Assembly (NCBI GenBank): GCA_001593685.1
Contig: LUKI01000003.1
Location: forward strand, 7,384-71,383
DNA: 64,000 bases
Direction of reading: 5' to 3'
DNA from: Gammaproteobacteria bacterium F7
Lineage (GTDB): Bacteria > Pseudomonadota > Gammaproteobacteria > Pseudomonadales > IMCC2047
This document shows positions 41,265 to 64,000 of the stretch, one piece after another. The position numbers and the translations under genes are program-made. Each line of letters opens with the position of its first letter. Position 1 is the stretch's first letter. The notes under the pieces are model-generated. The model saw only the letters and a list, made by a program, of their open reading frames with translations. It had not been told where the DNA came from and did not search any database.

Positions 41265-41280
41265 CTGTTTATTCATACAG
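41265..41280. promoter_or_regulatory. LexA (SOS) box upstream of intI
   Basis: CTGTttattcatACAG (CTGT-N8-ACAG, context caCTGTTTATTCATACAGtt), 23-38 nt upstream of the intI start codon. Confidence 0.7.
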
Positions 41281-60824: not shown

Positions 60825-62132
60825 TTAAAGCGCTAATAATCCCTGCTGCCGGGCCACTCCACGCAGCAGGTGATAGGCCACCAGCGCCGCAATGATATTA
60901 GCCAACCCAGCGCCCACAAACATCCCCGTCGCACCGGCCAACTGAAAACCAATAAACGCTAATGGTACATAAAGCACCAGCAGTCTAATCAGCGTTGTCA
61001 GTAGCGCTAACTTTGGCCGTTTCAGCACGTTTAAACAGACCATAATTAAAATGACGACCCCATGTGCACCATAGGTTAAGGGCAAAATGAGCAGAAATGC
61101 GCGAATCACCTCAATAACCCGCTCGTCACTACTGAATGCTGAGGCAATAAACTGCGATCCCAGCAGCAGCAACAGATAAACAGCAGCCTGAAAAAACAGG
61201 CTAAAACGCAGACCAATCAATAACGCTGAATAAGCACGCTGTGGCTTGCCCGCACCAATATTCTGGCCGATAAACATGGGCAATACCGACGACAGCGCAA
61301 AAACCAGAATTAGAGCAACCGATTCAATCCGGCTACCAACACCAAAACCGGCCACAGACTCAGGCCCTGACTGCGCGATAATGGCCGTTAAGATCGCCGC
61401 CGCAACCGGCGTCATAATATTCGAGCCCATGGCCGGTAAGGCAATAACCAATAGGCGCCGCCAATTTGCAACGAGCGCAGATAAACCAGGCCAGCAGAGC
61501 AATAATAGTTTTTCTTTGTGCCAAATGGTCAACAACGAAATAAACCAGGTTAACAACACCGCCAGTAAAGTCGCCAACGCGGCCCCTGCTACCCCCATTG
61601 CCGGCAACGGCCCTACGCCAAAAATCAGCAATGGATCAAAGATGGCGTTACTCACTGCCAGCAGCGTTGATAACCAGGCAGATGCTTTGACATTACCAAT
61701 GGCTCGAAATGCATTATTAGTCACCAGAATCAACATGAGAAAAGGAGCGCCTAATAACCAGTAATGCATATAGCTTTTAATATCGGGCATCACCTCACTG
61801 GTCGCACCTAATAACTTAAAAATTGGCTCAATCAGCCCAAAGCCCATTAACGCCAGGACCAAACCTACACAGAACGTAAACAGCTGGGTATCAGTAATCA
61901 GTCGTGCAGCATGCTCATGCTTTCCGGCACCAATCAAACGCGACACCAACGCACCTAACGACATCCCAATACCCAATCCGGCGCTAATCACCGTAAAGGT
62001 CACCGGCAGAGTAAAACTGACCGCCGCCAAGGGGCCAGTACCAAGCAGTGCTACAAAATAACTATCAACCAAGCCCAGCAACATCATTGAGATGATGGCC
62101 AACAACATTGGGATGGTTAATTTAACCAGCAA
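60825..62132 (-). CDS. MATE family efflux transporter (N-terminal boundary uncertain)
   Basis: 12-TM protein; ...LVKLTIPMLLAIISMMLLGLVDSYFV... is a MATE N-terminal motif. The frame stays open upstream to 62210 without a canonical start (see findings). Confidence 0.85.
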   Translation of the reverse strand: MLVKLTIPMLLAIISMMLLGLVDSYFVALLGTGPLAAVSFTLPVTFTVISAGLGIGMSLGALVSRLIGAGKHEHAARLITDTQLFTFCVGLVLALMGFGLIEPIFKLLGATSEVMPDIKSYMHYWLLGAPFLMLILVTNNAFRAIGNVKASAWLSTLLAVSNAIFDPLLIFGVGPLPAMGVAGAALATLLAVLLTWFISLLTIWHKEKLLLLCWPGLSALVANWRRLLVIALPAMGSNIMTPVAAAILTAIIAQSGPESVAGFGVGSRIESVALILVFALSSVLPMFIGQNIGAGKPQRAYSALLIGLRFSLFFQAAVYLLLLLGSQFIASAFSSDERVIEVIRAFLLILPLTYGAHGVVILIMVCLNVLKRPKLALLTTLIRLLVLYVPLAFIGFQLAGATGMFVGAGLANIIAALVAYHLLRGVARQQGLLAL

Positions 62133-63118: not shown

Positions 63119-63592
63119 TTAATAATCAGAGCCCGACTGGGCGTATTTAATCTGTTCAAAACTAAAGCCACGCTGTGCCAGAAAACGCTGCTGCTTAGCG
63201 CGACTCTTGGCATCATTCTCTGGACTTGTTCCGTATTTCTTTTCAAAGGCTAACCTAGCCTGCTCAAACCAGTCATTATCGTGAGCCGCCATATACTGTG
63301 CAATCAATTGATCACAAACACCGCGGTCTTTTAACTCTGCACGTACGCGAACCGGCCCATAGCCGCTATTCGCCCGCATACGCACGAATGCTTCACAAAA
63401 TCGCTCATCATCCAGCAGGTGATCCTCGATGAGTCGATCAAGTACAGTGTCCAACAACTCCATATTCTCCACCCGTGTTTGCAACTTGCGCACTAATTCC
63501 AAACGGGAGTGTTCGCGTCGTGCCAGCAGATTCATGGCGGCAAAACGGATATCAGCGGATGTTTCTAAAATTTTGCTGCTTTTGCTTTTCAT
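63119..63592 (-). CDS. recX: Recombination regulator RecX
   Basis: ...AAMNLLARREHSRLEL..KL...; a three-repeat helical protein of 157 aa, immediately downstream of recA. Confidence 0.9.
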   Translation of the reverse strand: MKSKSSKILETSADIRFAAMNLLARREHSRLELVRKLQTRVENMELLDTVLDRLIEDHLLDDERFCEAFVRMRANSGYGPVRVRAELKDRGVCDQLIAQYMAAHDNDWFEQARLAFEKKYGTSPENDAKSRAKQQRFLAQRGFSFEQIKYAQSGSDY

Positions 63593-63811
63593 TTTTCTAG
63601 AGCGTCAGTTTAATTTAGCCACGCATCTGTGGAACTCGGTCTGCGCCGGGTGGCGTAGGAGAAATAAATACAATGTGGATTCTAACCTACGTCAGAATAG
63701 CGTCTTTGGAGAACACCTTTCCCCAAAACAAAAAACGGCAAGCCGAAGCCTACCGTTTTCTCATCAAATCGCCACACCTATTGCAGGTTAGAACTCAACT
63801 TCTTCAATACC

Positions 63812-63867
63812 TTCGTCCGCCACTGGTGTGACATTACCTTTCGTCCGCCACTGGTGTGACATTACCT
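63812..63867. repeat. Perfect 2 x 28-bp tandem direct duplication inside the recA 3' end
   Basis: ttcgtccgccactggtgtgacattacct occurs at 63812-63839 and again at 63840-63867 with no mismatch. Confidence 0.95.
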
Positions 63868-64000
63868 AGCAATGCGGCACGAATCTGACCTTCAATTTCT
63901 TCTGCGACAGCTGGATTATCATTCAGAAACTGCGCCGCATTAGCTTTACCCTGACCAATTTTATCGCCCTGATAGCTGTACCAAGCACCCGCTTTACCAA
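63834..64000 (-). CDS. recA: RecA, C-terminal 55 codons (the gene continues past the window end); the reading frame is altered by a 28-bp tandem duplication
   Basis: My translation of the minus strand gives [54 protein letters not shown]. The stop is at 63836-63834. Without the duplicated copy, the frame would read ...ADEGIEEVEF* and end at 63788. Confidence 0.85.

Follow-up and report, generated by a model that had tools for sequence, protein, structure and literature searches.

A 28-bp tandem duplication that would remove the acidic C-terminal cluster of RecA in a marine IMCC2047-group gammaproteobacterium: recent mutation or artefact

The recA gene at the end of the window (the whole stretch of DNA analysed here, 64 kb in length) carries close to its 3' end a perfect tandem duplication by which the acidic end of RecA is lost. 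The question raised by this locus is whether the duplication belongs to the organism and, if it does, what it would do to the protein. The 28-mer TTCGTCCGCCACTGGTGTGACATTACCT was found in two abutting copies that are 100% identical, at exactly the coordinates given by the sequence-only reading (Table 1). The copy number at period 28 is exactly 2.0, and neither flank extends the repeat. A scan of the entire 64-kb window for perfect adjacent duplications, with unit sizes of 8–300 nt, returned this one only, and the chance expectation of a perfect 28-nt tandem repeat in 64 kb (roughly 64000 x 4^-28) is effectively zero. The junction between the copies reads GACATTACCT followed directly by TTCGTCCGCC, i.e., TACCT/TTCG.

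Table 1. Coordinates of the features at the 3' end of recA and downstream of it (window positions).
Feature	Position	Strand	Remarks
recX	63119..63592	-	157 aa, intact, downstream of recA
Intrinsic-terminator-like hairpin 3' of recA	63730..63761	-	14-bp stem, UUCG loop, U-rich tail
Ancestral last seven recA codons and stop	63788..63811	-	GGT ATT GAA GAA GTT GAG TTC TAA = GIEEVEF, stop
TACCT short direct repeat	63808..63812		matches the TACCT that ends each 28-mer (63835-63839, 63863-63867)
28-bp repeat, second copy in mRNA order	63812..63839	-	out-of-frame reading AGG TAA ...
28-bp repeat, copy met first by the ribosome	63840..63867	-	encodes G-N-V-T-P-V-A-D-E in the native recA frame
Premature TAA	63834..63836	-	made by the frameshift; preceding codon AGG (Arg)
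recA 3' end	63834..64000	-	gene runs past the window end

The recA frame is shifted, 28 not being divisible by 3. With the duplication the protein ends in ...VADER at the premature TAA, whereas with one copy deleted in silico it ends in ...VADEGIEEVEF, with TAA at 63790-63788; the two translations agree with what had been read earlier from the sequence, namely that the last seven residues, three Glu among them, are exchanged for one Arg, and that the single-copy frame closes at the downstream stop. The residues lost (GIEEVEF) include E339, E340 and E342 in the numbering of the 343-aa protein, and the product is 337 aa long instead of 343. The ancestral codons for these residues are still present in the window, now out of frame and untranslated, and are found with the same sequence and in the same frame in IMCC2047 and in the JGI metagenome contigs. 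The new stop is preceded by AGG, the least used of the Arg codons in the window (2.5% of all Arg, 1.4 per 1000 codons). The full recA product of the assembly (P0003, 337 aa), encoded on a contig of 78,796 bp, was found in a large protein collection by a search whose scoring used the C-terminal 60 residues.

The folded part of RecA is untouched by the duplication. P0003 has the precomputed Pfam families PF00154 (RecA_N) and PF21096 (RecA_C), and the Walker A motif, sought as GPESSGKT, is present as EIYGPESSGKTTLTLQ and is invariant in the alignment of the closest RecA proteins, P0003 included, as is the DIRRIGAIKEG segment that holds the docking residues. The 343-aa RecA of IMCC2047 (P0001) aligned with E. 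coli RecA chains over residues 1-340 without a gap (E = 8e-165), residue n of P0001 being residue n+1 of E. coli RecA. From this gapless alignment it follows that the folded C-terminal domain ends at ...LLG and that everything beyond it is disordered tail. The duplication shortens this tail from 16 to 10 residues and changes its net charge from -5 to -1; the stretch GNVTPVADE is retained, and three of the five acidic tail residues are removed, the terminal three-Glu cluster among them. The window RecA was accordingly not classed as carrying a net-acidic disordered tail, but the gene is nonetheless a recA.

Single-copy sequence was found in all six of the same-species contigs compared, at identities of 95-98%: IMCC2047, two JGI metagenome contigs and three Logan contigs. 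The Logan contigs span the site, come from three independent metagenome runs and are each shorter there by exactly 28 bases; two of them (X1 and X2) are about 95% identical to the window, and the third (X4, about 98%) holds the window's own version of the 28-mer, with one base different, in a single copy. Over 3.2 kb of DNA the identity to the window was 95.7% for IMCC2047 (L009) and 97.1% for the JGI contigs (L010 and L011), all three with one copy of the 28-mer. IMCC2047 (GCA_000211335.2, AEGL01000371.1) shares with the window the gene order cinA, recA, terminator, recX, NAD-binding dehydrogenase and MATE transporter, but has the 28-mer region once, where the window has it twice, and its RecA has 343 aa and the end ...VKDEGIEEVEF, against 337 aa and ...VADER in the window.

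The protein comparison gave the same picture. P0003 is 99% identical to the RecA of IMCC2047 and 98% identical to P0002 (343 aa, encoded on six JGI/ENA metagenome contigs), and the nine closest RecA proteins are all 343-345 aa long, with C-termini EEVEF or EVEI. In a set of 74 RecA proteins, the window's included, for which the last helix could serve as an anchor, the window RecA has the shortest tail after the anchor (14 residues; 19-47 in the others) and the least acidic one (net charge -1; -2 to -9 in the others, -5 in IMCC2047), and is the only one with Arg as its C-terminal residue; no similar tail loss was found in the 73 others. The relatives were also checked for a natural ...ADER ending, which had been named earlier as an observation that would undo the frameshift reading, and none was found at the DNA or the protein level. 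These sequences show the duplication to be a derived state that is private to this genome.

The junction itself was sought more widely. A junction 30-mer was absent from genome_contigs, a collection in which the closest match to the window's RecX peptides is only 78% identical, and a junction 24-mer was absent from the JGI metagenome contigs. A wobble-tolerant pattern for the tail-coding sequence had no match in metagenome_contigs, since the relatives have Lys where the window has Ala. No sequencing run matched three sampled junction-spanning words; the best run shares just 0.55-0.64 of the window's sampled words and so does not hold this genome's reads, and with a 10-kb stretch as the query no run exceeded 0.55 of the words. 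Six further Logan contig runs gave only short unitigs, none of which reaches the site, and run X22, searched as raw reads, was without reads of this organism.

The segment that is duplicated (63812-63867), which links the folded domain to the end of the tail, was observed to be a local hotspot of strain divergence. When it was compared with L009:3060-3090 and with L010/L011:3970-4000, about 7 of 27 bases differed, against 3-4% in the surrounding 3.2 kb, and the linker peptide reads GNVTPVADE in the window and GDVTPVKDE in IMCC2047 and the JGI contigs. The adjoining terminal GIEEVEF codons are, unlike the linker, nearly invariant among the strains.

A recent, strain-specific 28-bp tandem duplication, truly present in the recA of this marine bacterium of the IMCC2047 group, is the reading that we favour, at somewhat better than an even chance; its presence in the organism's own DNA is inferred. 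In 3.2 kb compared with the three closest relatives no other coding indel was found, recX, the dehydrogenase gene and the MATE gene being intact, and the 78.8-kb contig extends at least 1 kb beyond the site on both sides. Since the copies are identical, the event would be very recent. Of the marks of replication slippage, identical and directly adjacent copies are present, and microhomology at period 28 was found on neither border of the duplication, which counts against a real event, as does the occurrence of the allele in one assembly only. In the single-copy form, two copies of TACCT are spaced 27 nt apart and not 28, so that the observed sequence equals a 27-bp slippage product with one extra T, and TRF reported the repeat as 2.2 copies with an indel. 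A near-miss repeat of the TACCT type occurs at only 1.7% of random positions, and its presence here hints at polymerase slippage with the addition of one T rather than at a join made by software.

The strongest competitor is an artefact of assembly, finishing or library preparation in an organism that has a single copy, to which we assign a substantial chance, though one short of even. Three routes may be envisaged: concatenation of contigs through an overlap of k-1 = 28, gap closing or polishing, and an in vitro polymerase slip during PCR or MDA that reached the consensus. The first is suggested by the repeat length, as an untrimmed join of de Bruijn contigs built with k = 29, a k-mer size in common use, would leave an overlap of just these 28 bases. 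The single-copy state of the six same-species contigs, the restriction of the junction to one assembly among all the runs and collections searched and the lack of microhomology at the repeat's own period are also what an artefact would give. De Bruijn assemblers, however, do not make up junction words that no read contains, and the site is internal to its contig. No systematic fault is evident, either, as the 64 kb hold no other perfect tandem duplication and the 3.2 kb compared with the three relatives no second coding indel. The TACCT near-miss favours a polymerase, which may itself have acted in vitro, over software as the source. Base-calling errors do not give rise to changes of this kind, a perfect 28-bp duplication. 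A duplication produced from a haplotype bubble in a metagenome assembly was considered separately and rejected, since not a single base separates the two copies, in a segment where strain variants have many differences.

Should the duplication be real, as we favour, its effect can be anticipated from work on enterobacterial RecA, from which all the functional consequences given here for the tail loss are extrapolated. In E. coli and Klebsiella, RecA is autoinhibited by its terminal three-Glu cluster, which docks on the ATPase core in a contact that is abolished by mutation (PMC13076628, Su et al. 2026). The tail has likewise been described as a flap with an autoregulatory role, which keeps RecA from nucleating on dsDNA and on SSB-coated ssDNA, and the deletion delta-C17 was found to raise recombination about fourfold (PMC4849656, PMC8548320); the view of the acidic tail as an autoinhibitory element, put forward when this DNA was first read, is thus in line with all three reports. 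In K. pneumoniae and E. coli, tail deletion and the 3E-to-K exchange increased DNA binding, filament length, strand exchange and UmuD cleavage. LexA cleavage in vitro fell with either change. With an SOS reporter in vivo, tail deletion lowered induction and only the Glu-to-Ala and Glu-to-Lys point mutants raised it (PMC13076628). Of delta-C6, the small deletion, the same report says only that it belongs to a group of deletion mutants with raised DNA binding (PMC13076628).

The window RecA has lost the very three-Glu cluster that docks on the core, and the basic core residues to which the tail docks in the published systems are conserved in it. The laboratory deletions of the E. coli tail (as cited in PMC4849656 and PMC8548320) likewise lose the terminal cluster of three acidic residues and leave the folded domains intact. 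Unlike those designed deletions, the change in the window is a frameshifting duplication, a natural accident, and it takes seven residues from a 16-residue tail and adds an Arg, whereas the E. coli tail has 24 residues, eight more. The ribosome would leave the native frame after ...V-A-D-E, read the rare AGG and stop. The tail-less RecA would then be expected to bind DNA, to nucleate and extend filaments and to exchange strands more readily, and the 337-aa protein would promote UmuD cleavage better, while its co-protease activity on LexA may be weaker. A partly derepressed recombinase is therefore the best-supported prediction, should the allele be real. Loss of one of the two identical copies would also be expected at an appreciable rate.

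The direction in which the allele would move the SOS response is ambiguous, since the published tail deletions lower LexA cleavage; the deletion mutants, with lower SOS induction, and the charge mutants, with higher induction, disagree, and the outcome in the window is not readable from them. A more readily activated RecA had been proposed for this allele on first reading. DNA binding and strand exchange would rise, but a simple gain in SOS induction or in intI expression is not supported, given the lower SOS of the deletions (PMC13076628). In a sister strain (L010, 2922-2937), recA is preceded at a distance of 64 nt by a canonical LexA box, CTGTTTGTTTATACAG; the matching part of the window's own contig falls outside the window. 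A CTGT-N8-ACAG motif was confirmed in the window at 41265-41280, about 22.5 kb from recA, in agreement with the earlier mention of a LexA-boxed integron integrase 22 kb away. As the sign of the SOS effect is ambiguous, that of any effect on this integrase is equally so.

Downstream, recX follows recA directly, as the sequence-only reading had it, and its orthologue in L009 and L010 has the Pfam domains RecX_HTH2 and RecX_HTH3. The recX of the window has no coding indels with respect to the relatives. The hairpin 3' of recA folds with -19.1 kcal/mol (z -3.3) and is conserved in the relatives. A consensus terminator scan of the recA-recX region nevertheless returned no site in spite of this strong fold, probably because the A-U extension of the stem uses part of the T run and so defeats the scanner. 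A polar effect of the allele on recX is unlikely, as the new stop precedes the old one by just 46 nt and the terminator has not changed. Four other indels with respect to the three closest relatives were found, at window positions 63619, 63650, 63736 and 63777, all in the recA-recX spacer; they are single bases, mostly in short runs, and none falls in recX, the dehydrogenase gene or the MATE gene. The idea that this spacer is unusually conserved was rejected, since its few substitutions and four 1-nt indels in about 195 nt match the background of 3-4%. A match to the Rfam family BASRCII26 (Brucella sRNA CII26) at 63596-63760 on the minus strand was dismissed as noise (24 bits against a gathering score of 218). 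Further downstream, the MATE transporter gene (window 60825-62132, minus strand) was called with 435 aa from a TTG start and its orthologues (L009 4782-6086, L010 5737-6999 and L011 5716-6999) with 434, 420 and 427 aa, respectively, and the true start is uncertain.

It is very improbable that the duplication is both real and selected, or forms a reversible switch, with the tail-less RecA as a favoured allele for hyper-recombination or an altered SOS response; the same slight chance is given to its particular form as a contingency switch, maintained or recurring, in which gain and loss of a 28-bp copy would toggle RecA between an autoinhibited and a derepressed state. Tandem repeats are intrinsically reversible and collapse by slippage, which would suit a switch. 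The change removes exactly the autoinhibitory acidic cluster and spares the whole folded protein, and an SOS-type box stands upstream of recA in the species as CTGT-N8-ACAG does upstream of the integron integrase. Were it true, recombination, UmuD activation and the SOS-dependent expression of the integrase would be retuned in a subpopulation. Nothing similar was seen, however, in any of the six same-species contigs or the 73 other RecA proteins, and the identity of the copies speaks for a very recent event. Derepressed RecA variants are, moreover, costly and quickly lost in E. coli (PMC4849656). The sequences compared give no sign of selection or of spread of the allele.

Translational recoding, by which a +1 shift at GAA-AGG-TAA would bring the ribosome back to the native frame and to the ...GIEEVEF end, leaving a nine-residue duplication in the tail and function largely kept, has a negligible probability: AGG is indeed the rarest Arg codon here, and slow AGG codons promote +1 shifts in some systems such as Ty1, but re-pairing of tRNA-Glu from GAA to AAA would be poor, nothing that might stimulate a shift is evident and the arrangement is accidental and conserved in no relative, so that a trace product would be expected at best.

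For the species, the recA of this assembly should be flagged as one allele in one assembly and not be taken as the normal sequence. A RecA that has lost its tail in this way would be a natural but minor, strain-level curiosity, in a gene and a regulatory element that are already well understood. If the favoured reading of a recent duplication is correct, the allele would parallel in nature the RecA tail deletions made in the laboratory, and would do so in a bacterium from the environment whose chromosomal integron has a LexA-type box in front of its integrase. It would offer a probe of the importance of the terminal acidic cluster outside the Enterobacteriaceae, and could show which way the loss of the tail moves the SOS response, the very point on which deletion and charge mutants disagree.
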